From the NCBI GenBank assembly GCA_047967505.1, contig CM106538.1: DNA of 64,000 bases, one strand, 5' to 3'. The stretch's first letter is position 1. Every line of letters starts with the position of its first letter. The notes beneath the pieces are model-generated. The model was not told the origin of the DNA. It made no database searches and saw nothing but the letters and a program-made list of their open reading frames with translations. Both the position numbers and the translations under genes were made by a program. This document shows positions 39,997 to 64,000 of this stretch, in pieces. This DNA comes from Dipteris shenzhenensis. Its lineage: Eukaryota.

Positions 39997-40949
39997 TTAG
40001 TGTTGATGATGTACTTGACTTATTGTATGATTATCTCCATGAAATGTCAATGTATTGTTGTTGTTAGACTGGCTTGCTTGAATATCTAATGAATAATGGT
40101 GGTTTGCATTGTTTAATATTTGGTGAGAATAATGGATGTTTGCATTGTTTAAGCATGATGACATTGCTCGTTAATAGAGAGTCAAGTTTGCTTTGTGTTT
40201 CACATTTGCCTGAATGAAATTGCACATAAATTGAGATAGTGACAAAAGAGATATCTTCAAACATCTTGTTGAAGTTTGTTACTTTGCTTGATGTGCACGT
40301 CCGCTATCTTGATGGTGGGAACTAATGTCCAGATACTTAGGTTGATGTCCAAATCCATTGTAAGAGTTGTATCTTCATGATGGAAATTGATATCCATTTG
40401 TTGCAAACTACACTAATCTTCTACAAATATTGCATTGTCATAAAGTAACATAAAATTGCAATAACTTGAGGAAAAGTTGGCAAGATTTGATGAGAGATGT
40501 GATAATTGGATTAGGAATCATGGATAGATGATATTTCGATTCAAAAGCTACCATTCAAATGATGAATTATAATTTTTTTCTTTTGGTCAAAAAGTAGCTG
40601 TATTATATAAATCAACAAAAAGATTTACATTGGGATCCTCTTACATATCATCCTCATAAAGACGTATTTCAGCAAGTAGACCAAAGATAAGATTAAATGT
40701 ATCAAACAATAGAGAAACTAATGTAACAAAAAATCACTAGAGTAGAGGTATTTGAGTCCCTTGTCTCATTCACAATTAGATGCAAGCTACAACATCCCCT
40801 TGTGCTGGCAATCCTACTAGAAGTTTCTTTGATACTTTGCCTTGTGCTCATGAATTTCATCAAACAGTAGATCATGGTCCCTGTTGAAGAGTTGAATGAC
40901 CTGGGAGAGTCTGTGATTTTCTTGATAACCATTCCATAAAAAGAGATCC

Positions 40950-42907: not shown

Positions 42908-45900
42908 AAAGTGCTGTCCATCTATACTTTTTGGCTCACATGGAAGCATTGGCAAGCTAGTTGGAGATAGTTGGGCAAAACAAAGCCAATTTACTTCCAC
43001 ATGACAGCTAACAGAGAGCAACATGCAGTCGTCCTCTAAGAAACCCCTATGCAGCAAGGCGAGACCATGATGGGCTAGCCAAATAGAATGATCTGCAAGG
43101 GTGCATGACTAGAGCGGAGACAAGGGTCAATCCACAATGCCGACCAACCAACTTGAATGGTTGGCCAATGAACAAACAAGGGTCTAGGGACTCTAGTCTA
43201 GGATAGACCCCAAACAACCTCAGACTGAACAACCAAGAGCAACCCCTAGGGTAGCAAGACAAGGCCATCATGGGGGCCAGCCAAACAGAATGATCTGCCA
43301 AGGTGCATCACCAGACCACAAATAAGGGCCGATCCACAATGCAGGCCAACTGACATGAATTGTTGGCTAATGAACAAACAAGCATCTAGTGACTCTGGTC
43401 TAGGATAGACCTTGACAAACATCAGGCTAAACAATCTAGACCAGACCAAGCCAACCACAGAGAAGGCCCCTGGAGAGGGTTACAAGGCACTTATATAGCC
43501 ACCACTGTTGGGCCAATGGTTGTACTCGGAACCAAGGATGTTTTTATCGAAGCTATGCTTATATATTAATATAAAATCTTGGCAAAAGTTTTCAAGCTCC
43601 ATTTTTTGCTTTCACAATATTGGTAGAATGTAGTACCCTTTTTATATGTTCTTTTGAATTTTGAAGGAAAAAATGTAAATCCTAGCAAAACTTCAAATTT
43701 TGTTGCATAACAGTGTCAAATCCTGGCTAATGTTTTACACTTTTAAGCTATGCTTATATATTAATATAAAATCTTGGCAAAAGTTTTCAAGCTCCATTTT
43801 TTGCTTTCACAATATTGGTAGAATGTAGTACCCTTTTTATATGTTCTTTTGAATTTTGAAGGAAAAAATGTAAATCCTAGCAAAACTTCAAATTTTGTTG
43901 CATAACAGTTTCAAATCCTGGCTAATGTTTTACACTTTTATTTTGATTAGGACATACAAACTTTCTATGGCAATATAAAAGTTTATCTCCTTAATGAAAA
44001 TAACTTGAAAAATTCATCCATAACTTGTTCCTTTATCCAATTTAAAAGTGATGTCCGTCTATACTTTTTGGCTCACATGGAAGCATTGGCATGCTAGTTG
44101 GAGATAGCTGGGTAAAACAAAGCCAATTTACTTCCACATGACAACTAACAAAGAGCAACATGCAATCGTCCTCTAAGAAACCACTATGCAGCAAGGCGAG
44201 ACCATGATGGGCTAGCCAAACAGAAGGATCTGCAAGGGTGCATGACTAGACCGGAGACAAGGGTCAATCCACAGTGCCGACCAACCAACTTGAATGGTTG
44301 GCCAATGAACAAACAAGGGTCTGGGGACTCTGGTCTAGGATAGACCCCAAACAACCTCAGACTGAACAACCAAGAGCAACCCCTAGGGTAGCAAGACAAG
44401 GCCATCATGGGGGCCAACCAAACACAATGATCTACCAAGGTGCATCTCAGACCACAAATAAGGGCCGATCCACAACGCAGGCTAACTGACATGAATTGTT
44501 GGCTAATGAACAATGTGACTCTGGTCTAGGATAGACGTTGACAAACATCAGGCTAAACAATCTAGACCAGACCAAGCCAACCACAGAGAAGGCCCCTGGA
44601 GAGGGTTACAAGGCACTTATATGGCCGCCATTGTTGGGCCAGTGGTTGTACTCGAAACCAAGGATGTTTTTATCGAAGCTATGCTTATATATTAATATAA
44701 AATCTTGGCAAAAGTTTTCAAGCTCCATTTTTTGCTTTCACAATATTGGTAGAATGTAGTACCCTTTTTATATGTTCTTTTGAATTTTGAAGGAAAAAAT
44801 GTAAATCCTAGCAAAACTTCAAATTTTGTTGCATAACAGTTTCAAATCCTGGCTAATGTTTTACACTTTTATTTTGATTAGGACATACGAACTTTCTATG
44901 GCAATATAAAAGTTTATCTCCTTAATGAAAATAACTTGAAAAATTCATCCATAACTTGTTCCTTTATCCAATTTAAAAGTGATGTCCATCTATACTTTTT
45001 GGCTCACATGGAAGCATTGGCCTGCTAGTTGGAGATAGCTGGGTAAAACAAAGCCAATTTACTTCCACATGACAACTAACAAAGAGCAACATGCAATCGT
45101 CCTCTAAGAAACCCCTATGCAGCAAGGCGAGACCATGATGGGCTAGCCAAATAGAATGATCTGCAAGGGTGCATGACTAGACCGGAGACAAGGGTCAATC
45201 CACAGTGCCGACCAACCAACTTGAATGGTTGGCCAATAAACAAACAAGGGTCTGGGGACTCTGGTCTAGGATAGACCCCAAACAACCTCAGACTGAACAA
45301 CCAAGAGCAACCCCTAGGGTAGCAAGACAAGGCCATCATGGGGGCCAACCAAACACAATGATCTACCAAGGTGCATCACCAGACCACAAATAAGGGCCGA
45401 TCCACAACACAGGCTAACTGACATGAATTGTTGGCTAATGAACAAACAAGCATCTAGTGACTCTGGTCTAGGATAGACCTTGACAAACATCAGGCTAAAC
45501 AATCTAGACCAGACCAAGCCAACCACAGAGAAGGCCCCTGGAGAGGGTTACAAGGCACTTATATGGCTGCCATTGTTGGGCCAGTGGTTGTACTCATTGA
45601 ACCAAGGATGTTTTTATCGAAGCTATGCTTATATATTAATATAAAATCTTGGCAAAAGTTTTCAAGCTCCATTTTTTGCTTTCACAATATTGGTAGAATG
45701 TAGTACCCTTTTTATATGTTCTTTTGAATTTTGAAGGAAAAAATGTAAATCCTAGCAAAACTTGAAATTTTGTTGCATAAAAGTTTCAAATCCTGGCTAA
45801 TGTTTTACACTTTTATTTTTATTAGGACATACAAACTTTCTATGGAAATATAAAAGTTTATCTTCTTAATGAAAATAACTTGAAAAATTCATCCATAACT

Positions 45901-46852
45901 TGTTCCTTTATCCAATTTGAAAGTGCTATCCATCTATACTTTTTGGCTCACATGGAAGCATTGGCGTGCTAGTTGGAGATAGCTGGGCAAAACAAAGCCA
46001 ATTTACTTCCACATGACAGCTAACAGAGAGCAACATGCAATCGTCCTCTAACAAACCCCTGTGCAGCAAGGCGAGACCATGATGGGCTGGCCAAATAGAA
46101 TGATCTGCAAGGGTGCATGACACAAGGGTCAATCCACAGTGCCGACCAACCAACTTGAATGGTTGGCCAATGAACAAACAAGGGTTTGGGGACTCTGGTC
46201 TAGGATAGACCCCAACCAACCTCAGACTGAACAACCAAGAGCAACCCCTAGGGTAGCAAGACAAGGCCATCATGGGGGCCAGCCAAACAGAATGATCTGC
46301 CAAGGTGCATCACCAAACCACAAATAAGGGCTGATCCACAACACAGGCCAACTGACATGAATTGTTGGCTAATGAACAAAAAAGCATCTAGTGACTCTGG
46401 TTTAGGATAGACCTTGACAAACATCAGGCTAAACAATCTAGACCAGACCAAGCCAACCACAGAGAAGGCCCTTGGAGATGGTTACAAGGCACTTATATGG
46501 CCGCCATTGTTGGGCCAGTGGTTGTACTCATTGAACCAAGGATGTTTTTATCGAAGCTATGCTTATATATTAATATAAAATCTTGGCAAAAGTTTTCAAG
46601 CTCCATTTTTTGCTTTCACAATATTGGTAGAATGTAGTACCCTTTTTATATGTTCTTTTGAATTTTGAAGGAAAAAATGTAAATTCTAGCAAAACTTCAA
46701 ATTTTGTTGCATAACAGTTTCAAATCCTGGCTAATGTTTTACACTTTTATTTTTATTAGGACATACAAACTTTCTATGGCAATATAAAAGTTTATCTTCT
46801 TAATGAAAATAACTTGAAAAATTCATCCATAACTTGTTCCTTTATCCAATTT
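42908..46852. repeat. Tandem array of four ~930-bp units
   Basis: Units start with AAAGTG at 42908, 44045, 44976 and 45920. Unit 1 carries an extra ~195-bp duplication. Each unit contains a diverged ~200-bp internal dimer. Confidence 0.95.
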
Positions 46853-47147
46853 GGGAATGGGCAATCCAAGCACCACCTAGGTGCGGATCTCAGCCATTTA
46901 GCAACCCTCAATTCAGTAAGCAAAATGGTTGGCCTTGATTTCCACCACTCTACACAATTTGAATTGGTTTTTGGTGTTGAGGGCTCTCACCTAGGGCCTT
47001 GCTTGTATTATTTCTTGGATTTGTTTCCCAAATGAATAGAAATGAATACTATTTGGTATGCTTACTACCTACTGTTGTTGCTAAGTTTGTCTTGTTGTCA
47101 TTGTCATCTTCAACAACTTGGTCACCCATAGATTGGTGTACCATAGC

Positions 47148-49206
47148 ATGGTTAATTGTTATGGTCTCTACAAGAGGCTTATATGACATAAAGGTGATTC
47201 CTATGAAGGCTTATTTAAACTATTATTGATAATGAATGGTGAGTGCACTCTGGAGGCTTACCCCATCTCATTAGTGAAGATGCTCACTTCTAGAGATTTA
47301 CCTTAATTCAAGGTCCTCCTCATAGTTGGAGGCTTATCCAACCTAATACTAATGGTGCTCTTTGATAAAGGCTTACCCAAACATTTTAATTATTTGTCCA
47401 TTCAGATGTAATGCTCACATTGATTAAGGCTTACCTTATTCAAGAAAAATGACTAAGTCATTGATTCTGTGCTAGAAGGCTTACTTTATATGATTACATC
47501 ATTTTAAAACAAATCTCATGTTTTAATTCATTCCACCAAGCATAAGATTGGAATAAATGCTAGAAATTCTTTCAGTTAATGATGGCCACTTGTTGATGAG
47601 GTGGACCAAAGCTGCCAAAAAAGTTGTTTTTAGTTGTTGAAATCCCCCATTTTATTTGATAACTATTTGATGTAGAAAACATAAAGAGCCTTTGATTTAT
47701 CAAATGTATGTGCTTGATAAATGCAACATATTCAGAATAATGAATATCAACATTTAAATCACCACTTTGGTGCTTATAAATTTGCTTGAATTTGAAAGAT
47801 TTTGTGTTTAATACGAGATCGGCATTTACTGGTATTAGAATAATGATAGTTTGGTTTTACACTTATTTTCTTCAAATTAAGATGGACTTGCATGTCATTG
47901 AAACTAGTGTTATTTACTAGAAAAATAATTGATTTGAACGTGAATTACAATACTTGTTGATGCACATCATGTGCTCTTTCAAGTTTCAATTGCTTGATGA
48001 AGAATTTTCTAAAATGATGGTCCATGTTTGCTTGTGCTAATTGGCACAACGAGAATTAGATTTGCAAAATTGTGAAGGATGCCTCTAAAGACTTTTTCTA
48101 AAATCTGCTTCAAATTTACCAAGATGTGATCAAACTACCAAAAATGGTGCCTAGAAATGCATTAGCAAAATTCAAAGCTCACTTTGGGGCCCTAAGAGAA
48201 ATCACCATGTTGTTTTTTTGGCTTTAAAAATAAATTATATAAAAAATAAAATTGACAAGGTAGGTGTTTTAAGTAGGCGTGCCACTTAAGTCTTTGAAAA
48301 TTCGATGCACGATTTGATGTTTTTGACATCACCAACACGTCTTGAACAGGCCAAAACCCCACAACCAACTTTTGAAATGCTGAGAATGGTGTCTAAATTG
48401 CATTCCACTATACATTCTTTTTTCGGGCCTTTTTTTGGCTTTTTTGGGCCTCCGAGTGTCCATTCTTAGTGTTTCAAAAGCCACTTTAGGGGTTTTGGCC
48501 CGCTCTAGAGGCACCATCGATGTCTTAAAATTCAAATTCTGCACCAAAAAATCATGTACATCAAATATAATAAATGGAAATGATATCCCTATTGAATGTA
48601 AGCTTGATTTTTTCCCTCCTTTTTATGATTTTTTTCTACGTTACGTAGGCTTATGATTTTTTTCTATGTTATGTAGGCCCTCCTCTGATTGGTAGAGGGC
48701 TATTTTTCTTCTAGGCTAAAAGGCCCCAAAATGAGCTCTCAAGTTTCCTAATGGTACAAGGGTTATACTTTTCTAAATGATGCCAAAATAATCCAAAATA
48801 TCTTTACATGAGCAACATTGTGTTTGTTTTTTAATGTGTGAATGAAGATTGCACAGAATTTCAACCAAAATTGACCAAGATATGGCCTAATAGCTAAAAG
48901 TACCTTCTTGATTGGAGCATAGATTTCTATGAATAACAATGCCCATATGGCCTCCAATTTTTTTAATAACATGTACTCTATGTATATCATGCAAAGATGT
49001 AGTGTGCAAGTACGTATGTGCAAGTACGTATGAGGAACAAGGAGATAAGATGCTAAATTCACTTTTAGCTTGTGGACTTAATTGTGATGTGTAATTGTGA
49101 CAACCTAGGGACACTAGTAGTGGAATGGAGATGAGGTTTGTTGCTACCCTTAGCACCTTGTAAAATTAACATTTAGAGGCTAAGTGGGGGCACTTTATTA
49201 CAAAAA
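47148..49206 (+). repeat. Long direct repeat, left copy (~2.06 kb); contains palindromic module copy 2 (48175-48738)
   Basis: Colinear with 56742-59016 from ATGGTTAA to TTATTACAAAAA. About seven RAGGCTTAY motifs in the first 350 bp. Confidence 0.92.
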
Positions 49207-49667
49207 TAGGCTAAGTAAGGGTCTTGAAAGGGCCCCCAATGAGTGTTTCCTAATTTCAAGGGATTAGTGAGGTATTTGAGGTGTACCAATGGGAGTGCTC
49301 CTTTTTGTGGGGCAATGCCATGTTGAGGTGGAGGGTGGGCAGACCTGCAAACAGCCCCTATTGGCTACTCCTCTTACACCGGGGACCACTCAAACCATCC
49401 CCCCCCCCAACCCATGCTTGACCCTTCTCCCATATGCACCTCCCCCAAACAAACCTACAAGTCATTCAAGAGGCAGTGGGCCCTTCTAGGTGAATTTTTC
49501 CCCCCTCAACTTGTTACAGGCCTGCCCCCTCCTTTTCTCTAGTCCAGCTCCATTCTCACTCCATTTTTCAAATGTGGGAACTCATTTGGCATCTTCCCTG
49601 CCCCATCCTACTCTAGTCCACTGTGTTTCTCCCTCTCTAGCACCTCCTATACCAGCTGCTCATTATA

Positions 49668-49880
49668 TCTCCATTCCTAGCTACAGCACCTCCTACATCA
49701 ACAGTTGCTCATCCCCCTCTGCTCTTTCTCCCTCCATTCCTAGCTATAGTACCTCTTGTAGTGGCTATTCATCCCCCTCTGCTCTTTCTCCCTCCATCCC
49801 TAGCTACAACACCTCCTGGAGTAGCTGCTCATCCCCCTCTGCATTTCTTTATCCATTCCTAGCTACAACACCTCTTGGAG
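49668..49880. repeat. ~60-bp pyrimidine-rich tandem repeat (~3.5 copies) upstream of the BAH gene
   Basis: CCATTCCTAGCTACA..CTCATCCCCCTCTGC recurs every 60 nt. Confidence 0.85.
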
Positions 49881-50006
49881 CTTCTCTCAACCTTCAGTTG
49901 CACCCTCTATACCTTCTCCCTCTCTCTCCCTACATCGAAACTGCTCTCTCCCTCCAAGCTGCACTTTCTAGTCCACTATTGCTATTGTGACAACCTCTGT
50001 ACAAGC

Positions 50007-51155
50007 ATGGTGAGGAGACCATACATGTACTCTGTGTCCCACAGGAACAAAAATGCACTGGATGAATGGGTGCCTTGCGCCTACAGCTTGAATGATTGGA
50101 TAGTCATGAGAGGATCTGCCAAGGGTCCACATAAGCTTCCCAAGAGCAAAAGAGGTGATGTTTTGCATGAATGGAAGGGCCGCATCATGAAGTTCAAGCT
50201 TGGGAAGAAAGGATGGCTTGCAAAGGTGTAACACATCTACATGGGGAAGGACATGCGCCTTCCTCCATCAAGCAATCAATCGACAATACCATCACATTGT
50301 AAGTCTACATTTTGTGTAAGATTTTGAAGTGTAATGAGTCAGTTTGAAATTGTATTTTGAAATAGAACCAGTGTATTGAGTCAATTTGAACTTGTATTTT
50401 GAAATAGCCCTTGTGCATAGCAGATGTATTTCCTTCAGAATTTGAGGAGTGGGAACCAGTCGAGTGCTTCTTAGGTAAGTTTACTGCCATTCATGAGGAT
50501 TTAGGAAGGCAAATGCATGCTGGAGAGAAGTCCTCTGCTTTGAAACACATAAATATCCATTGGTATGATGCCAAGTACATTACTCCAAGGACGGCATTAG
50601 GCTATGGCCATCTTCAATGAATTGCAACACCACAACTTGAAGACGTGCATTGCAACATGGTGGACACAAGAACAATGCAATCATACAAGGAAAAGATTGC
50701 AAAGGATGTGGGCATGGCCATGAAGTTTACATTTGGCTCTAAATGGGTAAGGTTGTCTTGGTTTATGCCTCTGCATATTTTTGCTTCTTATTTTCAGAAT
50801 ATCCAGATGCACAGAACAAAAACCATGTGGTCATGCAAGTGCCTACATGAGAATTCCCTTGAGGAATTGCTTGGGGTGAATTGGGGAAGCAGGTCAGGTG
50901 AACAGAAGGGTGATTTGTTTCAATCATGCTGACATCAATCGCAATGCTAACAAGGTCATTTTGGTGAACCGCATGGCTGCCCTCAATGCCTTTGGAACCA
51001 ATTTTCAAGGTATGGCATTGACGGTAGCAGCCATGTCCCTGGCCAGCAACAACAATAGCGTTGACTCTCTATCGACTAGGTTTAGATCTAAGAGTGTATT
51101 TGGGAATTCAAAGCCCGATATTCTCAGTGTTTTAGAGAAGAGAGAAAGGCTCTGA
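50007..51155 (+). pseudogene. BAH-domain-like protein; exon 1 50007-50298, exon 2 from 50424; disrupted
   Basis: Spliced product YSLNDWIVMR..HEWKGRIMKF..LAKV*HIYMGKDM..PSH|YVFPSEFEEWEPVECFLGKFTAIH follows the BAH pattern (Y.xGD.V.MR / Y.ARI.KI / V.V.WYYRP.E / ELFLS..D...+E.I.GKC.V). The GT-AG intron 50299-50423 keeps the frame. Stops at 50229 (TAA) and 50618 (TGA). The C-terminal end is uncertain. Confidence 0.6.
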
Positions 51156-51379
51156 AGCCTTATTGTATAGAAATTTTATTTTATATGAATACAGATATAT
51201 TTTTTATATAGTGCCCCATTTTGTGTTCTTTTACAAAATTTATTTTATACTGTCATTGTATTTTGTGACTTTAATTATTGTTGGCATTAATATTTTCATT
51301 CACTATTTTGTTCAAAAGCATGCTATCATATAAATATTTGCGCTATAATGGTCATTTCAGAGCAATCCAGTAAGAATCT

Positions 51380-51574
51380 CACCATGCGGCAGAAGGCAAA
51401 TGTGTTCGGCATCGCGCGGGGAGCCTAGAAAAGCAAAAATTTGCTATGGCACATATGGGTCAAACAGGCCCCATATGCACCTAGTCAAATAGGCCCCATA
51501 CATGCCATAGCGGTTTTTTGCTTTTCTGGGCTCCCTGCACAATGCTGAACACATTTGCCTTCTGTGCCACAGTG
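51380..51574. repeat. 195-bp hairpin/MITE with ~75-bp arms and CAC...GTG ends
   Basis: CACCATGCGGCAGAAGGCAAATGTGTTC.. pairs with ..GAACACATTTGCCTTCTGTGCCACAGTG. Mismatches are mostly transitions. Confidence 0.85.
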
Positions 51575-51757
51575 AAAAAACATCATTTGACCACTCAAAT
51601 TCACATTGAACTTGCATAAACTGATGGAAAGCATCATGTAACATGTATAATAACATGGGAACAATAATAGAACATAAAATTATATTTTATTCATTGGCCT
51701 CAAAGGGCAGAGATTTACAAAATGATTCAAGTTACACCAAATGAGCCTAAACAACAT

Positions 51758-52868
51758 CTAGGGCCAAAGGGAGGGATCGGAGCAGATGCGCTTGGCGAGG
51801 GTAAGATCCTTGTCCATCACTGTTACTCTTTTGGCATGGATAGCACATAAGTTCGCGTTTTCAAAAAGACCTACTGTCATTTGCTCCATTGCCTCGTGAA
51901 TTGCTCCCATAGCACCTGAAGTGAAACGCACATCATCCTTGTAATGCTGTGCTATTTCACGTACAACACGTTGGAAGGGTGCACGGGGAATGAGATTGTC
52001 CACAGTGGTTTGGAACTTGTGGATCTCTTGAAGGTCCTTCACGCCTGATTTTTTGCACCTCTTAATCTTTGGGGGACCCTGCACTAACCTCTGGACATGG
52101 CTCCATGGCCGCTTGTATTCTTTGAACTTCTTTTGCCTCTTCTTCCTTGCAACCACCTCTTAAGCTCCTCTTCCTGTGTCTGGTGGGTCCTTCGAGGTGG
52201 CTTGTCGTGCCTAGGCGTTTGCTTTGTCCTTGGTCTCTTTTCCTTTTCATGAGGCTGTGAGACAACAGGCTGAGGCTCTTGCTCAGCTCGTACTAGAGGC
52301 TCCTCATATCTTATAATTTCGAGGCACAAAGGGTTGATGATGCTCTTCCATGCGGTCTGCTTGGTTGGAGGATTGGGGCCAAGCTTCATTATATCTGCGA
52401 GCCCGCCAAATACTTCCTCTTGTTGTGGCCCCTGTAATCTCTCCATCTCCTCTCTTTGCCTTTCTTGCTCCCCTTGTTACTCTAGATGCTCCATGCCAGG
52501 ACCCCACAGAGGAGGGAGGGGTAGTTGATCAAGATTGACTGGACTATTTTACCCCTCTTGGGAGACCTCTCTACTTCCACAGTTAGTTGTGTGGAAGGAC
52601 TGAGAGGATCCCTAATCATGCTTGGATCCTTCCTCGTGCTGGGATTCCTCATGGTGCTGAGATCCCTGGGATCCCCCATGAGAGTCGAATGGTGGGGACT
52701 CGCGTTGCTTGGACTCCTGATGATGAGAACCACCTTCAGATCCCTCTTGATCAATGCCCTCTTGGCCACTGGGGCTTGCAGTGTGTTCGGAGGCCATGGG
52801 TTGTGAGGACAACGGGTAGCGTCTAAATGATGTCCACTGGGTCTAGCAGTTTGTTTAACTCATGCCAT
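51758..52868 (-). pseudogene. Divergent histone H3-like gene with very long N-terminal tail (reconstructed ~370 aa)
   Basis: Intact histone fold [56 protein letters not shown] (45/70 identities to canonical H3 by manual count). Starts ATG GCA TGA GTT AAA CAA ACT GCT AGA = MA(R>*)VKQTAR. Internal PTKQTA(W)KS and PRTKQTPR. Four stops and two frameshifts, all in the tail. Confidence 0.88.
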
Positions 52869-52881
52869 AGAAATGAGGGAT

Positions 52882-52953
52882 TTTAGGGTTTTGAATTGCT
52901 TTATATAGTCTTTTTTAAAGAACTTTAGGGTTCTTCTTTTAAATTAGGGTTTT
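52882..52953 (-). promoter_or_regulatory. Candidate promoter of the H3-like gene: TATA plus three telo-box-like AACCCTAA motifs
   Basis: TATATAAA (52907-52900 on -). TTAGGGTT at ~52883, 52925 and 52944. Confidence 0.5.
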
Positions 52954-53152
52954 TTGAGTGCACCCCCTCCCCCTCCCAATCTTTTGTCGTCGCCAGTTCG
53001 GTAATACTTAATCTTCACTACGCTCCCTCCCAACCCACTCACCCCTCCGCCTTGCCATGTCGCACATGCAATTCTGCAATTTCCAAACAAATTTGTGAAT
53101 TTTGGAATCTATAATTGACTCAAAATAGTGTTAACTTTATTCATCAAACATT

Positions 53153-55609
53153 TTACATTTGGGGCTCTCTTAGGACCCAACGCCTCCCCTGTCTGACTCT
53201 ACTTTGCAACCAAAGCACAACCCCTTGGCTCCCTGTTGAGGACTTCCAAGTAGCACATCTCCTTGTCTTCTTGAGATGTTGAACCGCTTTTGCGAGACTT
53301 GAGACCTCTACCTTATCGCGCTTGAGAGTCCTAGTCTCAAGACATCTATAAAACCAATCGAACATTCGTGTAGTGCATTGCTTCATGCGATACCACCCCC
53401 ATGCCTTGTATTCTTGAAGTATGCTGCCTTTGCTCTGTAGTGTGATTTCTCCATTCCTTGAGTATTCCACATGGACAGAGTGCCCCATTGCTCCACAAAC
53501 CATGGTGCATGTGCGTAAAGAATATACTGTAAACAAAAACATTGTATTAGAAACAGAAACTGACTCAAGTTTAAAGCACAAATTTCAACCTAAGGAGGAT
53601 TACCATGTAATGTGTAATATGTGACTCCCCCCATGCTTCTACCATCAATGATATGAATTCTCCCAATGCTGTCCTGAATCTCTCATAATAAAGCTCATCT
53701 GTTTGACCTTGTCTAAGCAACTTTATAAATGCATCAAGCTTTGTCCACAGTTTTGCTCTCAAAGTAGCAATTCGCGGATGTGAAGCTTGATTTGTAGTGC
53801 ACTCACACAAAGCTTTCCAATACTCCCAATCTAGGGTGCTTTGAGCCAATGTATGTTTTTCTTTATCAGCATTGTGGTTGGACAAGAACCTCCTTGCCTT
53901 TCCTCCACCCATGGACACTTTAGAGGAAGATTTTGTCTTTCCTGATTGTTTCTTGTCCTGCTTAAGCTTTACATTGCCTCTGTGAAGTTCCATTAGTGAG
54001 AGTAGTTCTTCAGCTTTTGCAATGCATTGTGCAGATACTTGCTGTGGCCTCAAATTCCAAGCATAAACTAGATGGAGATAGAGTAACTTATCAAGTATAC
54101 GCAGTTCAGCATGCAAAGTACACACGTGTACCCGCTCCAATGGAATTGGTAGAATGGGGTCCCACTTAGGATCCTTTTTGTGATGATCAGGGGCTGCACT
54201 TTGGTTGCAAGAAAGGATGCCATTTTCCCACTGTAGGCTTCCCCAATGAAAGAGAAATACAGTAAGGATATAGAAATGAGAAGAAATAAAGTTGCAATGA
54301 AGAGGGGATTTCTCTTACCTTCTTCTCTCATCCCATAGAATTTGACCATGGCTCTTTGCAAATTCTCTACATCCACGTAAACATTATTAAAAGCATTCAT
54401 CTCAAACGTTTGGATACCAGATTTCTTTTTACTCTTCCAAGTCATTGTGCCACTTACACAATGGTATCCTCTAAGCTTTTCTCTAGCACATTGGTTTGTT
54501 TCTTGATGTGCAAGCCTTACAGACCACGGTGTTGGAAATGGCATTGTAGATATCTTATACTTTTCCTCCATAGCAGACTTGAAAATTTTAAAAACAAAGT
54601 TGTAAGCTTCACGACTTACACCAGCAGCATCACAAGATCCAAGCACCTCCTTTGCTTGCACGAGGCCCTTGAAATCCTTCATTACCTCTCTAGCAACTTG
54701 TTTACGTCGCCCTTTTTGTCTAGGGTCCTTCAACACTTCCATGACATCACTTGGCTTTATTAAACTTCTTAGAACATATGAAGGATCACTATCATCCATT
54801 TCCATTGTTCCCATCGCATCCTCCATGAAATTCCTAAAGTAGAGTACAAATGAGTCTTAGTGGAAAGAATGCAACACCACAAATATTTTCGAGTAAGAAA
54901 TTTCATTGAAAATTTGGGGAACTAACCTTGCATCTCGTATTCTCCTCTTTCGGGCACCACTATTGGTTGACAATGCATCCATAGATTGTAATTGTCTTTT
55001 CCTCTCTTTCAGTCCCAAAGGTGTTCCCTTCAACTTTTGTACTCGTTCTATTGACTTCTCTCGTTCATTCTCCACAGCACATTGAACTTGGCCATAGATA
55101 GACCTTTCCAAATCTTGTTTGCTTTCAGCGAGCTCCTGGATTGATTCTTCCAATTCATGTCGCTCCAAGTCCAGTGGATGTGCTTTGTCACTGAGTTCTT
55201 TGTTTTGCAATTGGAGATCCTGCATACTATTATGCATTGCCACAATAGTAATATTTCCCAAATGTGCAAGTTCTTCTGCTTGGGCTCTCTGCACCTCGCT
55301 TGCTTGCATAGCCAATGTCTGAGAATGGTTCAATCGATTGCAATAACCGAGCAATCTAGCATGTCCCTTGCCAACAAACCGAACAACATCATGCACTATA
55401 TGAAAAGGAGGACTCTTTTGAGTGGCAGGGTATAAAGGTTACAAGTTTCCATCCACCCAATGGTCAAGATGCTTCTTTCCTTGCAATCGAAGACTGTGGA
55501 GCACACTTTGAGGAGTTCCACTATATCCCAAAGAGCGTGTGCTTGCATATTCTACCTCCAGTTGTAGGTTCACATGGTACTTGTTGGATATGTCCTCGAA
55601 AGGTGCCAT
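53153..55609 (-). pseudogene. RAG1/Transib-like (CMC-related) DDE transposase; multi-exon, internally deleted
   Basis: Exons 55609-54927, 54833-54319, ~54230-53604 and 53526-53153. Introns 1 and 3 are frame-preserving GT-AG. Motifs in order: PIPLERVHVCTLHAELR, SMGGGKARRFL, HITHYM|YILYAH, GTLSMWNTQGMEKSH (RAG1: DALH, MNGNFARKL, ITNYFHKTLAH, GSIGAWASEGNESGN). N-terminal coiled coil. Confidence 0.78.
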
Positions 55610-55659
55610 GAGTACTCAAAGAGAGGTATCAATGATGCAGGCTAAAATGTAGGGAAGAG

Positions 55660-56262
55660 CTGGCAAAGATGGAGTAGTGAGAGGGAGAGAGTAGCAAGGA
55701 AGAGGGAGGAGGAGAAGCATATGAGGGAAAGAGGAAGAGGAGGAGGAGAGTAGAGCGACAAGTTTAGAAGGGAGGGAAGGAGCTGCTGTAGAAGGGAGGA
55801 GGAGGGGAGAGATGCTACAGGAGGGAGGAGGAGGGGAGAGATTTTGCAGGAGGGAGGAACAGAGGAGAGGGAGCTTGGGCATCTGGAGAAGGAGGGAAGA
55901 GGAAGGAGGGAGGAGGAGCCAGGAGGAGGAGGAGGAGGAGGGGAGAGGGAGGAGGGAGGAGGAGGAGCAAGACGGACGAGGGGAGAGATGCTATAGGAGG
56001 GAGGAGGAGGGGAGAGATTCTGCAGGAGGGAGGAGCAGAGGAGAGGGAGCCTGGGCGGCTGGAGAAGGAGGGGAGAGGAAGGAGGGAGGACGAGCCAGGA
56101 GGAGGAGGAGGAGGGGAGAGGGAGGAGCGAGGAGGAGGAGCGAGACGGAGGAGGGGAGAGGAGGAGAGAGGGGGAGGGAGGGAGAGGGAGAGGGAGGGAG
56201 GGAGGGAGGGAGGGAAGGAGAGAGAGGGAGGGAGGGAGGGAGAGAGAGAGACAGAGAGGGCG
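55660..56262. repeat. GA-rich low-complexity tract upstream of the transposase
   Basis: Directly visible, with an internal ~180-bp duplication. Confidence 0.9.
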
Positions 56263-56741
56263 GGAGATTCAAAATTTGAAATTCAAATTTTAAAAAGTGG
56301 CCCCCTCCCCTCATTCATGGGGGAAGAGGTGGGCTCAAATGTGGGCTTAACCCACCTAGGTTGGGCTGGTTAGGCCTCTTTGGGACCCTTCAAGCCCCTT
56401 GCATTAGCCCACTAAGCATTCCCTAATCCATTCCTTATGAGGCCCTTTTGAGACCCCAATTCTCCCCTAATGTAGAAGTGATTCCCATTGCGGCGCTCAT
56501 AAGAGCAATCGTGTTGTTTGAGTAATTATGACTTAACATTTAGCTTCTACAAGTGTTATTGTAAGAACTTGTGCCAAGTATTGGATTCTGAAAAATCTTC
56601 CCAGATGTTGTTAAACTCAAACTCTTGATTGAAACTTGGAAGCTCTTCGTATTCCATGTCTAATGTTGTTGAAGTCGCCGATAGTGGCATATCAAAGGTA
56701 TCTAGCTTTTGAATCGAAATATCATCTATCCACGATTCTTG

Positions 56742-59016
56742 ATGGTTAACTACAATGCTCTCTGCAAGAGGCTTACATGACATAAATTTGATTACTATGA
56801 AGGCTTATTTAAAATGTTATTGTTAATGGTGTGCACTCTCGAGGCTTATCCCATCTCATGAAGATGCTCTTGGAGACTTACCTTAACTCAAGGTAATTCT
56901 CATAGTTGTAGTGTATCCAAACTGATACTAATGGTGCTCTTTGATACAGGCTTACCCAAACACTTTGATTGCTTGTCCATTAAGATGTAGTGCTCACATT
57001 GATTGAGGCTCAACTTATTCAAGAAAAAGGACTGAGTCATTGATTCAATGCTAGAAGGCTTACTTCTACATATGATGATTACATCATGTTTTAAAAAAAT
57101 CTCATGTTTTAGTTGATTCCACTAGACATAAGATTGGACTAAATGCCATAAATTTTTTTGGTTGATGATTGCCACTTGTTGATGAGATGGTGGATTAAAG
57201 CTGCCAAAAAGGTTATTTTTTGTTGTTGAAATCTCCCCCATTTTATTTGATAATTATTTAATGTGGAAAACATAAAGAACCTTTGATTTATCAAATAAAT
57301 GTGCTTGATAAATGCAACGTATTTAGAACAATGAATATCACCACTTTGGTAATTATAATTTTCCTTCAATTTTGAAAGGTTGTGTGTTAAATAAGAGATG
57401 GAATTTTGCTCTCAATAGAAAACAAGACTAATGATAGTTTGGTTTTACACTTATTTTCTTCAAATTTAGATGGACTTGCAATGTCATCGAAACTAGTGTT
57501 ATTTACTAGAAAAATCATTGATTTGAACTTGAATTACAATACCTGTTGATGCAGATCATGTGCTCTTTCAAGTTTAAACTGCTTGATTAAGACTTGCCTA
57601 CAATGACGGTCCATTTTTGCTTGTGCTAATTTGCACAATGCGAATGAGATTTGCAAAATTTTGCAAGAATTCTAGAATAATTCGCATTTACATAACCTTT
57701 ATCCTCTAAAATACTTCACATTGACATATTGTTTTATCTTATAAACATTTGGAAAAGCTTGCAATTAATCGATATAATAAGACCATGTTGTGAGCATTTT
57801 GTTGCATAATGTGCTTATATGATAAGACCCTAAAATGAAGGACAAAAATACATTCAATAAACTGAAATTTTTATGAAAATTATGTTTTTCTATATGTGAA
57901 GGATGCCTCTAAAGACTTTTTCTAAAATCTGCTTCAAATTTACCAAGATGTGATCAAAGTACCAAAAATGGTGTCTAGAAATGCATTAGCAAAATTCAAA
58001 GCTCATTTTGGGGCCCTAAGAGAAATCACCATGTTGTTTTCTTTGCTTCAAAAATAAATTATATAAAAAAGCAAATTGACAAGGTAGATGTTTTAAGTAG
58101 GCGTGCCACTTAATTCTTTGAAAATTCGATGCACGATTTGATGTTTTTGACATCACCGACACGTCCTGAGCAGGCCAAACCCCCACAACTAGCTTTTGAA
58201 ATGCTGAGAATGGTGTCTAAATCGCATTCTACTATACATTCTTTTTCCGAGCCTTTTTTTGGCTTTTTTGGGCCTCCGGGTGTCCATTCTTAGCGTTTCA
58301 AAAGCCACTTTGGGGGTTTTTGCGTGCTCCAGAGGCACCAGCGATAACTTAAAAATCAAATTCTGCACCAAAAAATCATGTACATCAAATATAATAAATG
58401 GAAACGATATCCCTATTGAATGTAAGCTTGATTTTTTCCCTCCTTTTGATGATTTTTTTCTACGTTACGTAGGCTTATGATTTTTTTCTACGTTATGTAG
58501 GCCCTCCTCTGATTGGTAGAGGGCTATTTTTCTTATGGGCTAAAAGGCCCCAAAATGAGCTCTCAAGTTTCCTAATAAGAGTTATACTTTTCTAAACGAT
58601 GCCAGAATAATGCAAAATATATTTACATGAGCAACATTGTGTTTGTTTTTTAATGTGTTAATGAAGATTGCATAGAATTTCAACCAAAATTGACCAAGAT
58701 ATGGCCTAATAGCTAAAAGTACCTTCTTGATTCGTGCACAGATTTCTATGAATACCAATGCCCATATGGCCTCCAATTTTTTTAATAACATGTACTCTAT
58801 GTGTATCATGCAAAGATGTAATGTGCAAGTAAGTATGAGGAACAAGGAGATAAGATGCTAAATTCACTTTTAGCTTGTGGACTTAACTATGATGTGTAAT
58901 TGTGACAACCTAGGGACACTAGTAGTGGAATGGAGATGAGGTTTGTTGCTACCCTTAGCGCCTTGTAAAATAAACATTTAGAGGCTAAGTGGGGGTAGGG
59001 TATTTTATTACAAAAA
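56742..59016 (+). repeat. Long direct repeat, right copy (~2.27 kb); contains palindromic module copy 3 (57999-58562)
   Basis: Matches 47148-49206 plus an extra ~235 bp at ~57661-57895. Confidence 0.92.
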
Positions 59017-61150
59017 CAGTTCACTCATCTTTAGTGTTGAGAAAGGGACATCTTAGTCTCCCTTTCATAGGAATGGCATTTTTTGGTCAAAAAGTTTTAA
59101 GCATAGTACTACATGAATTCAAAAGTAAGATTCAACAATAAATTAATTTGTAAAAAGTAAGATTCTACTTTTTGTCTACACCTTTTGTTCTTTGTTATAC
59201 TTCTCCCACACATTTTTTGTCCCTAAGCGTATAACATCTTTCCACATGCAACTTTTTTTATAAGGTTTTCGTTTGGCATAAACCCATGTGTCAAGCTTAA
59301 AGATTTGTAACACCCAAAAGGAAAAAAATTACATTGCTAAACAAATGGTAGACATGCATTTTTGGCTATGTTTGTCCAATCTTCATTTTCATTGTCTATT
59401 TAATACCATTATCTTGATCATGGAATGCAAGAACATGCATGAGGAAATATGTAGCTTCTCTTGTGGTATTGAATTGATCATGAAATGCAAGAACATGCAT
59501 GAGGAAATATGTAGCTTTTCTTGTGATGCATCTAATTTTTCACATATTTGTGTTGACGAACCAAACCTTAAGACATCATATTTGAATCTTTCATGTGCTG
59601 GGAGCATCATAAACATCCACGATGCCTTTTCCCAAAGCCAAGTATGATCTTGATGTCAAAAATTATTCTTCATTCTCTAATGCCTTGAAACATGTAAAGA
59701 GTTTTTAACACCCAAGATTTATACTCGTAATTTTGCTTAGTTTTTCAATCTACATGTTTATTGTCTACTCAATATCATCGAATTGATCATGGAATGCAAG
59801 AATATGCGTTGAGGAAACATGTGATAATGCATCTTGTGCATTTCAAAATCCACATGTTTGTGTTGATGAAGTGGAACCTTGAGACATCTTGACTTTTTAA
59901 CGGTAGGGCCTCTTTCATGATACGACTACCATAAATTTTGATATTTGATTTTCAACGACCTTGATCAAGTATTTCTTTATTTATTATTCCTTAGTTTTTA
60001 GGTTTTGCCCTTTACCCTTTATTATTAAACAAATGACAACTTCTATTAAATCTAAGAAAGTTTAAGTGGACCATTTCAATAGAAAAAGGGGGGGAACCAC
60101 TTGAAGACATGCAAATACTAGACATGAAATAATACTCGAACAAATCTAATCTAACATCTTTGTAGCATTCCATCCCTAATGCAAGATCATCTTTTTCTTC
60201 AAGCTAATAATCATATCCTACACCTTCAATCCTCCCAATTACAAAATTACGCTAATTAAATGATGTATTGTCCTTTTAAATGGGACATTGAACCCACCAA
60301 ACACCACCACTTTGAATTGTTGTCATTCTATAATAGACAACAAAATGAATCAAATTTCTGCAATTTGGGTTATTAAGAAGGGCATCATCATGCGATACAT
60401 CAGGACGAAAGAACATAGCAAAGATGCCAAAATTGAAGAGAACGGATGCAAATCAAAGGACTCACAGACCAAGGGGAAAGAAACCAGATACTACCGAGAG
60501 AGGAGAAATCAGAACAGGTTCTTGGTTTAGATATACGCCACGTTCTTACAAAGAAAAGAAAATAAAATAAGGATATCTCATAAGCCGCGAAAATACTACG
60601 AGTATGAAAATCGGAACGATCCCATGTAGTTTCTCGACAAATTATTTGCCATATTTTACCAGAACAGTACTGCCCAAGTATGAAAATCCAAAACCTCAGC
60701 CCCAAGTATCTTGTTTTCTTGAAAAGCCCCCCCATTTGAAAGCCATCAAAAATTTCCGAAGACAAAACAAGAAGTGCTCGTCACAGCCAAAAAATACTGA
60801 AAACAGATTCTCTGTTTTAATATTTCAACTCTTACTAATGCCCCCGACGGGAACAAAATTCTTTTGACAAGGTGATCTAAGGCGACCCCCGACAAAACTT
60901 TGACGTGCACCCAGAAAAAGGAATTAGGCGACTATCCAAGCAGGCCGCCTTCAAAGCATATTAATAAACTCACTCTACTGAAGCAGTGAATTTGGTTGAA
61001 CATATAATTTGCCTGAACCTCTTAGAGCATTAATAAACTCTCTCATGGAGGAGTGCACTTGGTTGATCACATTTTTGAATCAAGAGGTTCAGGCAAAGAA
61101 CATATTCTCACAAAACATCAACCCAGTTCAAAAAGTCAGCCACAAGAAGC

Positions 61151-62386
61151 TTAATAGAGGCCCGGCAACAATTCTGAAAGAGACAGAAGTCGCTCGACCC
61201 CAGGCCTCGAACCTTGCGAGAGGTAACTGCTCTCCACTGCTGGCAAATCAAGAGCCTCCGAGGCTTGCTGCGAGTAGGCATCGAACTGACCGTTTTCAAG
61301 AGCAAAAGCATTTGGAACGTTCAAATCCATCTCTCCAATGGACGCCTCGCAACCCATCACGGGTGACAAGCCGTCCAACTCGTCTTTGTAATTCTGCTCA
61401 AAGATGCCCTCGTGAGACGTCGAGGTTGAAGTGTATGGGGCTTCCCTCGTCCTGCTAGCCATTTCCACACCAGTGGGCGAGCTCCGTTCCCATTGAAACC
61501 GTGTTTGAGCTGCCAAATCCTCCCAATACGTCTCCGGAATGTTTGTGGGAGGGCTCATACACCTCGAACCTTCGCCCAACAGCCCCAAAACCTCTTCTGG
61601 ATCGAAAAATTCGTAATCTTGCAAGTCCTCTGGATACGTGAATTGCTCTGCGAGCTGGCTGTCAGAAGGTATTTCCAAATCGAGATTCGTCAAAGCCAGT
61701 TGACGGTTGTCGGCCTCGTTAACCTCGCGCTTCACAGCCGATAGTCCATCCGACGCTGTTCGATAATCCACAGATTCAGGCATCCATAAAGCAACGGACG
61801 GTTTGATATCATCGAGCTCGTCCGCATCAGGCTGTCGGCTGACTTCGTCTGAGACATCCGGGATAGGCTGCGTATCTGACGGAGCTGATACGTCTGTTTC
61901 TTCATCTTTACCGCTCGTTATACAAGAAGAAGAAGGATCGGAGCAACATAGGCTTTCGTCGTCATAGCAAGAGGAAGGAAGGGGGAGTATCCTACAATCC
62001 GTCACTTCCGGCAGATTGAGCCTTGCACCAGGGCCATAAAGGATTCTCGCAGCTTGGTCGTAAGCAAGCGCGGCTTCCCTGGCTGTAGCAAACGTTCCCA
62101 GCCAAAGCCTTTCACCCCTGTTCGGCTCCCTGATCTCAGATACCCATTTCCCCCACGTCCTTTGCCTGACTCCCCTGAAGTTGCAATGGGCGTTCTCCGG
62201 TCCACCTTTCCCTTTCATGCAGCCTTTCTTCGAGCCTTTAGCCGGAGCTTTCCTAACCCTGTGCAATTGACCCTCTTCCATGTAAATCTTCCGATTCTGC
62301 TCCGCCCACCAGGCCAAAATCTCGGGGACGCTGGAGCAACCGTGGGGTCGAGGCCGGGTAACTTTTCTCCTCCTGCGCATGATCAT
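61151..62386 (-). CDS. DREB2: DREB2-type (group IV/A-2) AP2/ERF transcription factor, 411 aa
   Basis: [21 protein letters not shown] (CMIV-1) followed by AP2 domain [44 protein letters not shown]. Then a Ser-rich segment, [10 protein letters not shown] and an acidic C-terminus. Open frame; first ATG at 62386. Confidence 0.95.
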
Positions 62387-62587
62387 GGCGCCAGGTTGGG
62401 AATTCCCAGGCGTGGAAGGGTGGGCGAAGGCGCAAGCGAAAGGAGCCAGGAATGGAGGGACGGACCCTGTTGGAGAGGGAAGCAAAATAGAAACAAGGGA
62501 GGAAGCGAGGATAAGCCGGAAAGAGGAAGAATTGAGAAGCGATAAGAAAGCGAGAGAGAGAGAGAGGGGGGGGGGGGGGGGGGGGGA

Positions 62588-62930
62588 ATTTATAAGTATG
62601 GATGGATGGGAGGGGGTGAGGTAAGCGCTAGGGAGCGTGGAGGGAAAGCGTAATAGGTGTGTGTGGCCGGAAGGGCTACTAGAATGAATGAATGATATAT
62701 AGGCGAGTGCAAAAAAAGAAGAAACATCTGGAATCTTTGGGCGACGCCTGTCATTAACGGGAATGACTAGCTAGCTCCTGCACACGTGTACACACACACA
62801 CACATAATACATGAATATTGAATGCGATGTTACCCGCGAAGCTTCCCCTTCTCTCCCGCGTCGCGATAAACCCCTCCCTCACCCTCAAGAGTCACCCCAC
62901 GCTCACCCTCAAGAGTCACCCCACGCGTCA
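62588..62930 (-). promoter_or_regulatory. DREB2 proximal promoter: TATA, HSE-like, G-box/ABRE and CGCG motifs
   Basis: TATAAAT 62594-62588; GAAacATCtgGAAtcTTT 62721-62738; CACGTG 62783-62788; GAAgcTTC ~62838; CCGCG/ACGCGT at ~62834, 62856 and 62923. Confidence 0.5.
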
Positions 62931-63314
62931 TCGCCCCCTCACGCCCCACTTCCCTCGCTTTCCGCACACATTATTCTTAGACTGTTTTCAACAACAAGAC
63001 CCTCTCTCCCATCATCGTATCATATCAAACCGCTCGCGACCCTCGCAGGGTATTTTAGAATGTATGCATGCGCCAACCACCACTTCTCATAATGCACCCC
63101 CATCCACCCGCTTCCCCCTCTAATCCACAATTGTTTGCAACATTGTGCCAACTTAAAATGAGACACCTTTTTGAAATCCACAAAACACTTCTCGTGTCCA
63201 ATTTTGCTAGGTCTATCTATGCCCATAGACTACAAGAAACTACCCATCATTAGTGGATTGGCCAAAGGTCCCCTTCAAGGAGAGCAAAGTGAGTTTTCTT
63301 CGGTTACATACCGT

Positions 63315-63468
63315 TGGATTTGGCTACTTCAATAATAAAAGGTCTAGCAAATTTCAACTCAAATAGATGGATTTGGCTACTTCAATAATAAAAGGTCTAG
63401 CAAATTTCAACTCAAACAGAAACTCGGTTACTTCAATAGTAAAAGGTCTAGCACATTTCGCCTCAAAC
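63315..63468. repeat. ~52-bp tandem repeat (2 copies plus a partial third)
   Basis: TGGATTTGGCTACTTCAATAATAAAAGGTCTAGCAAATTTCAACTCAAA repeated. Confidence 0.9.
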
Positions 63469-64000
63469 ACAAATTTAGTTTCCACCCCTACTACCACCAT
63501 CTACCTATTCAAGGACAATGTTCAAAAACCAAACCCCAAGTCTATTCCAACATTAAGGGCCACAAGGTTAACATCATTATAAGTTCAAGTTTCAACATAT
63601 TACTAACGTTCCACCTTACATGATCTAGCTTACAACAATTTGAATGCATTACAAAAGGGAATTAATGAGGAATCACCAAAAGACAATCCCCTCATTGTGA
63701 GGGGATTGTCTATTTTAATTCATTCAAAAAGGGAACTAATGAGGAATCGCCAAGACACAAAAAGACAACACCCCCCCCAAAAAAACGCCTCCCCAGCACA
63801 CATATTGCACATTTCCAATGTATTGGGTACATGGAAATGTACTCTTAGCTTTGTCGGTAGAGCAACCTCCCCATGCTACAAAGAGTTGCTCTTTTTCACA
63901 TGTCCTAAGATTGTAGCCATCGTGCCTATTCCCAAAGTTTTATAAGCATCCACAAGGTCTATTGGAGCAGATTTTAGTGTGGAAAAAGGAGTGGGAGGTG

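Follow-up and report, generated by a model that had tools for sequence, protein, structure and literature searches.

The stretch of DNA analysed here (the window; 64,000 nt) is plant-like nuclear DNA in which three neighbouring genes lie between two long direct repeats: a broken gene for a BAH-like protein, a divergent histone H3-like gene, and a convergent, putative transposase gene (Table 1). The direct repeats bracket all three genes in an LTR-like layout, and no reverse transcriptase was seen between them.

Table 1. Features of the window, with positions counted from its first nucleotide
Feature	Position	Strand	Remarks
Ty1/copia polyprotein	31230-35633	-	named by reading the translation
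Left direct repeat, ~2 kb	47148-49209	+	blastn identity of 83.8-93.6% to 56742-58995
Broken gene, ORF pieces	50007-50231, 50408-50620, 50621-50932	+	all three pieces confirmed
Broken gene, exon 1	50007-50298	+	conserved M-V-R-R-P start, then the BAH-like domain (first half); interrupted in frame by TAA at 50229-50231
Broken gene, predicted intron	50299-50423 (or to 50420)	+	GTAAGT donor at 50299; tandem acceptors, TAG then CAG
Broken gene, exon 2	50424-50932	+	remaining half of the BAH-like domain, then roughly three quarters of the conserved middle domain, with W-F-M-P-x-H
Tail of the stretch first noted	50933-51155	+	no relation to the family; ORF 50880-51155 in another frame
MITE-like hairpin inverted repeat	51379-51575		arms of 81 nt (81% complementary) around a 35-nt loop; lies between the broken and H3-like genes
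H3-like gene	51761-52868	-	histone-fold ORF 51761-52159; between the broken gene and the putative transposase gene
Putative transposase gene	53371-55438	-	several exons or frames; in-frame TAA at 54857-54859; convergent to the BAH-like gene
Right direct repeat, ~2 kb	56742-59019	+	insertion of ~228 nt relative to the left copy
AP2/DREB-type transcription factor ORF	61151-62770	-	539 codons, apparently intact; named by reading the translation

The reading frame of the broken gene opens at the ATG at 50007, and splicing carries it through all three ORF pieces. Depending on the acceptor, the intron measures 122 nt (ending at 50420) or 125 nt (ending at 50423), and both versions restore a single frame. 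We scored these readings against a family profile (A3; 395 positions) that was built from 45 relatives and includes no window sequence. The spliced reading gave a single hit over profile positions 12-275, with 252.5 bits for the 125-nt version and 250.2 bits for the 122-nt version, while exon 1 by itself scored 49.4 bits, exon 2 191.3 bits and the unspliced reading 51.5 bits. Since five shuffles and the reversed sequence reached at most -1.3 bits, as against 250-252 bits for the spliced reading, the ORF pieces are evidently real and far from a chance arrangement. The same profile hit supports the intron at 50299, as do the intron-less relatives (those of moss type and that at the metagenome locus L001), which are continuous across the junction of the window gene, and a further relative, P0006, which, evidently translated through its own intron, shows a read-in of 'SHCKS' at the same phase at which the window reading runs into GTAAGT. 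It should be noted that the profile cannot separate the 122-nt from the 125-nt version; the closest relatives read [T/A]-D-[V/I]-[F/Y]-P-S at the start of exon 2, and the shorter intron appears to be favoured because it keeps the Asp of this motif. A second short intron (50747-50797, GTAAGG..CAG, 51 nt) was considered and rejected, as the segment encodes W-F-M-P-L-H-I-F, the best-conserved motif of the family.

Both exons have recognizable relatives. Exon 1 aligns with the N-termini of P0006, P0014, P0017, P0049 and P0091, and residues 21-107 of P0006 match 50049-50306 with 44% identity in tblastn; these N-terminal relatives came from a HMMER scan, and a word-index search of exon 1 against longer proteins gave no match. 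The exon-2 reading is 58% identical to P0001 (292 aa) over 99% of the query (E 2.7e-66), and the corresponding tblastn match has an E value of 2e-71. When the window pieces were searched separately, they matched no PDB sequence and no Pfam family at E<=1. A HMMER scan with P0001 returned 165 representatives at E<=0.001, of which 77 lay at E<=1e-10 and 11 at E<=1e-30, and several of these relatives carry about 100-130 extra N-terminal residues that align with exon 1 of the window gene. In a second search, with a seven-sequence profile, 56 clusters were found, many of them of 385-446 aa and every one without a Pfam domain on record. The only named members of the family are a 'hypothetical protein' from Ceratodon purpureus and from two Adiantum species, and moss-type members share only about 21-27% identity with the window reading. 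Intact members measure about 370-450 aa and consist of an N-terminal domain of predicted BAH fold, a middle domain and a probable ubiquitin-like domain at the C-terminus. Judged by these matches, 50007-50932 is a decayed member of a multi-copy gene family, so far unnamed, of mosses and ferns. Of note, one clade of the family (P0013; 593-594 aa) is uniformly full-length across its 29 members and has an added N-terminal zinc ribbon (Pfam Zn_ribbon_LapB, E 2.6e-5); it gives the impression of one stable gene, perhaps domesticated by the host.

The first-pass annotation had proposed, from the strand pattern of the first ~130 residues, that the gene encodes a BAH domain. We examined the fold on an intact relative, P0014, rather than on the broken window copy. 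The AlphaFold (AF2) model of P0014, computed from a 45-row alignment, had a mean pLDDT of 89.6 and a pTM of 0.76. In a VIA-align comparison with 48,161 representative chains, ranks 1-19 were all BAH domains (Z 7.9-12.9; rmsd 2.5-4.2; 92-138 aligned residues) and covered model residues 1 to about 170-180, the printed range of one row reaching residue 287; rank 20, with Z 6.4, fell on a different part of the model. Foldseek returned 59 PDB matches at E<=0.001, the best of them BAHCC1 (1.5e-5), and the further rows printed included TNRC18, DNMT1/MET1, ASH1L, polybromo, AIPP3, EBS, SHL, MTA1 and ORC1; DNMT1, MET1 and MTA1 contain BAH domains. Because the leading VIA ranks are BAH domains and the Foldseek rows printed are BAH domains or proteins containing one, we call the predicted N-terminal fold BAH, though membership by Pfam profile fails: PF01426 matches one of the 45 members (E 0.017, 15.5 bits), none of the 45 reaches its gathering score of 30.8 bits, and the window pieces did not match it. 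Against 177,635 PDB sequences, the best match of the family profile was again the BAH domain of BAHCC1, at an E value of only 0.0061 (18.7 bits, positions 82-165), with V-x-V-x-H-x-Y of the family opposite V-K-V-K-W-F-Y. The proposed BAH domain is hence borne out by the structural match of the intact relative, with weak support from sequence.

The domain that follows had been described as unrecognized, and it is indeed real and conserved. A second model, of the middle and C-terminal parts (P0019; 179 aa, 86-row alignment, pLDDT 91.9), shows an alpha/beta domain in which a helix is followed by a mixed sheet, with the motifs W-F-M-P-x-H and G-W-D-x-K. Foldseek found nothing for this domain at E<=0.001 (best 0.05, probability 0.30) and the ESM Atlas gave no usable match; the VIA list of the P0019 model is filled by the ubiquitin-like part and says nothing on the middle domain, which we regard as unmatched rather than as a proven new fold. 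For the C-terminal part, the last ~55 positions of the profile matched the ubiquitin-like domain of ubiquilin-3 at E 0.034, followed by SUMO2, BAG6 and ubiquitin at E values up to 1.6. All 50 VIA rows listed for the P0019 model lie at residues ~122-179 and are ubiquitin-like proteins or ubiquitin/SUMO fusions (~50-57 residues), with Z scores of 4.9-6.6 that, being below 8, count as middling by the tool's own note; the ubiquitin-like rows of the P0014 model are likewise middling (Z 5.2-6.4).

In overall shape the family resembles the known BAH readers EBS, SHL, AIPP3, BAHCC1, TNRC18 and ORC1, with which it shares the distorted beta-barrel (VIA Z 11.4-12.9 for ORC1b, TNRC18, EBS, AIPP3 and mouse ORC1), and with BAHCC1 it also shares the sequence frame V-x-V-x-[W]-x-Y ... 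S-x-x-[ED]-D. It differs from them in sequence, with an identity of only 8-17% and Pfam scores below the BAH cut-off, and in its company, as the partner domains of the readers are PHD, coiled-coil or enzyme domains and those of the family are the unmatched middle and the ubiquitin-like domain; the family is, moreover, multi-copy and linked to a transposase-like gene.

Whether the likeness extends to the ligand depends on the pocket, for which the composition of the methyl-lysine cage was taken from an excerpt of PMC13068663 and the cage residues of BAHCC1 were assigned by reading the motif, not from coordinates. The family column opposite the rear-cage Trp of BAHCC1 holds His in 26 of 27 members and Tyr in the other one, the column two residues further on holds Tyr (25) or Phe (2), and an upstream column, represented in the window by the W of H-E-W-K-G, is aromatic in 27/27, so that two of the three cage positions of the readers are aromatic in the family. 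A later column, that of the W in the window's E-E-W, is Trp in 33 of 37. The aromatic residues that the first-pass annotation had placed near the cage (W of HEWKG, H and Y of HIY, W of EEW) do stand on strongly conserved family columns. According to the same excerpt of PMC13068663, a conserved His and Asp of BAH H3K27me3 readers recognize H3 Pro30 and Ser28. The acidic residue of this pair is kept in the family (Asp in 26 and Glu in 8 of 37). The column opposite the His that reads H3P30 contains Trp (16), Phe (6), Ser (4), Tyr (3), Leu (3), Cys (2) and three others (n=37); it is aromatic in 25 of the 37, and His is absent from the printed counts. With His in place of the rear Trp, and with the H3P30-reading His not conserved, the family departs from the readers as described in that excerpt (PMC13068663). 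Because of the first of these replacements, the pocket is, as far as its residues tell, not a canonical trimethyl-lysine cage, and trimethyl-lysine is a doubtful ligand; given the same exchange of Trp for His, the putative ligand may be a lysine that carries fewer methyl groups or none, or else a different peptide. The original suggestion of a reader of methylated H3 consequently finds no support in these columns, and the His-for-Trp pocket poses a concrete biochemical question.

The BAH domain of the family might also read no modified tail at all and instead be a docking module, for other proteins or for the nucleosome core, within an adaptor that acts, for example, against host silencing. 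Such a role would agree with the almost uniform loss of the cage Trp and with the C-terminal ubiquitin-like domain, which suits an adaptor, and the BAH domains of Sir3, Orc1 and rice ASI1 are found among the VIA matches (Z 9.4-12.9). The Sir3 and Orc1 domains dock on the face of the nucleosome, and the BAH domain of ASI1 binds a peptide of SUVH6. A mere docking surface accounts less readily for the aromatic residues kept at the cage positions on either side of the lost Trp and in two more columns close by, and the best sequence and Foldseek matches are the methyl-lysine readers BAHCC1 and TNRC18. We consider the docking role unlikely on balance, yet a serious rival.

Turning to the surroundings of the broken gene, the convergent neighbour had been labelled a transposase. 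Its three ORF pieces matched no relevant Pfam family (E<=1), no relevant match was found among PDB sequences, and recognition in the ESM Atlas was low, so the label is backed by no transposase profile in any of these resources. The gene does contain a C-x-x-H motif and a conserved H-x-T-H-Y-M ... Q-G-M-E-x-S-H stretch, and we take the C-x-x-H together with a later Glu-x-x-His-x-x-x-Lys stretch to resemble transposase motifs. A counterpart is found at the metagenome contig L001, which carries a full-length BAH-like relative of 398 codons (40% identical to the moss-type query A4, whose first sequence is P0186); here the neighbour lies downstream of the BAH-like gene, on the minus strand at 1371-2051, and is again convergent to it. 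Two exons match between the neighbour genes of the two loci, with 52% identity over 54 aa and 42% over 26 aa, and an intron falls at the same place in both. The linkage of a BAH-like gene to a convergent gene of this type is documented at only two loci, the window and L001, and we believe that the neighbour is probably the transposase of the element.

The gene that separates the two in the window has H3 as its nearest relative. With the Pfam Histone family, its intact histone-fold ORF 51761-52159 scores 104.3 bits (cut-off 26.4; E 6.5e-30), and the best 60 rows of the PDB comparison are all H3 or H3 variants, with H3.3 the best at E 2e-28; about 51 of 92 aligned positions are identical to H3.3 (about 55%, by hand count on the alignment). 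Upstream of the fold lie three K-Q-T motifs resembling the H3 tail (at about 52859-52842, 52367-52341 and 52236-52189), and the gene starts with ATG GCA TGA, a stop taking the position of Arg2 in H3. Both its divergence and its open frame exceed what a recent pseudogene of canonical H3 would show. At L001 no H3-like gene is present between the BAH-like and neighbour genes, and for this reason the window's H3-like gene may be a passenger specific to this lineage, or an insertion that has nothing to do with the pair.

The observed/expected ratio of CpG is 0.18 in the broken gene, 0.28 across 49210-56741 and 0.25 in the copia element, and it ranges from 0.18 to 0.38 inside the repeat block; in 59020-64000 it is 0.71. 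Nonsense codons are present in all three genes. As a whole, the three-gene block has the appearance of repeat DNA that has long been methylated. The 90% cluster of P0001 comprises 61 distinct members, and among the 15 of these that were listed many are truncated and each sits on a contig of its own. We read the direct repeats, the low CpG and this 61-member cluster together as pointing to a multi-copy, long-silenced mobile element. As for its ends, the ~2-kb direct repeats and a 41-nt inverted repeat were examined and revealed no clear termini or target duplications. The arms of the latter (40510-40550 and 56703-56743) are 93% complementary, and the right arm ends exactly where the right direct repeat begins; the pair could bound a ~16-kb element as its terminal inverted repeats, or a small repeat could simply be present twice. 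Low-complexity tracts mark the block at either inner edge, on the left (49646-49887) of 60-nt repeats rich in Ser/Pro codons and on the right (55642-56373) of purine-rich GGA/GAG sequence in 176-nt repeats.

Taken together, we favour the interpretation, at a probability of roughly 0.55, that the window gene is a decayed copy of a family that travels with the putative transposase gene, and that in live copies the BAH protein steers or shields the element in chromatin. In the mechanism that we infer, the BAH domain of a live copy would dock the protein on nucleosomes or on a histone tail, and the middle and ubiquitin-like domains would couple it to the transposase of the element or to host factors; in this way the element could be guided into a particular chromatin state or protected inside it, with a bias in where it lands or in how it is silenced. 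Chromo and PHD readers have been taken up time and again by transposable elements, as outlined in a section of a preprint (10.1101/2021.11.30.470311), and a reader-guided element of the kind envisaged here would parallel them. In those cases, among them chromovirus integrases with a chromodomain and transposases fused to PHD or Chromo domains, the element likewise carries a fold that reads histones, by which insertion could be steered or silencing evaded (same section, 10.1101/2021.11.30.470311). The difference lies in the architecture: the captured readers known are fused to the integrase or transposase, whereas the BAH fold of the family is encoded by a separate gene, convergent to the transposase-like one. 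The section of the preprint on captured readers names no capture of a BAH domain (10.1101/2021.11.30.470311), and we found no report of a BAH gene carried by a transposon in the titles and abstract openings of the open-access papers searched. If the linkage is indeed that of a mobile element, it would add both a new type of reader and a new architecture to those known. Apart from this, Pfam does not see the family, and with a dedicated profile repeats and genes would be better annotated in the large genomes of mosses and ferns.

A more conventional origin would be that of a pseudogene of an ordinary host chromatin gene, which was never mobile cargo and whose neighbours are there by chance or come from other repeats. 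The ill-defined ends of the element and the neighbour's lack of a transposase match leave room for such an origin, the ~2-kb direct repeats could belong to another element, and the uniformly full-length P0013 clade could be a host gene. It is difficult to reconcile with L001, where the same convergent neighbour is found despite the distance of its BAH-like gene (40% to the A4 query), and with a cluster in which 61 distinct members at >=90% identity, many of them truncated, are gathered; the CpG depletion, moreover, is like that of the copia element. A host-gene origin thus appears rather improbable to us, and the mobile-element interpretation remains the one we prefer.

A far more elaborate version of the mobile-element interpretation would make use of the H3-like gene as well. 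In it, bryophytes and ferns would harbour undescribed DNA transposons equipped with a chromatin toolkit, in which a protein with a His-pocket BAH domain, the novel middle domain and the ubiquitin-like domain tethers the transposase to a given nucleosome state, and an H3 borne by the element itself displays repeated tail motifs that the BAH protein recognizes, as had been hinted at by the first-pass annotation. Were this so, the element would mark or choose its own chromatin. Amplification of H3 copies by a DNA transposon has been described in fungi, where, as here, an H3-like gene lies in repeat DNA beside transposon genes (excerpt of PMC6710886). Compared with the fungal copies in that excerpt (PMC6710886), the window's gene is highly divergent (about 55% in the fold) and has three tail-like motifs. 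In the open-access titles and abstract openings searched, the phrase 'transposon-encoded histone' was not found. We regard the full toolkit as highly improbable and mention it for what it would imply.

As regards the state of the window copy, the gene had initially been viewed as a cryptic one, legible by splicing and by reading through stop codons. Its frame is interrupted by TAA at 50229-50231 and by TGA at 50618-50620 and 50930-50932. In relatives, the column of the TAA holds Gln or Arg and that of the first TGA holds Cys, Arg, Glu or Ala, and because sense codons stand there, decay explains the stops better than read-through does. A six-frame scan of the window with the profile ends at position 280 of 395; no frame contains the last ~115 positions, in which the middle domain finishes and the complete ubiquitin-like domain lies, and 50933-51155 gave no profile or tblastn match to the family in any frame and no Pfam family. 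A live gene expressed by stop-codon read-through, for which the otherwise open frame and the retained signature residues of the family might speak, can practically be dismissed in view of three stops of two kinds within about 270 codons, the sense codons that relatives have at these places, the missing end of the protein, and the nonsense codons of the neighbouring genes. By these features, we consider the window copy a 3'-truncated pseudogene that makes no functional protein, an ordinary dead copy without function.

Elsewhere in the window, a tandem satellite occupies 42908-46853, where a unit measuring about 931-944 nt is present four to five times at 95-100% identity, and the AP2/DREB-type ORF lies just outside the repeat block, in DNA of much higher CpG content.
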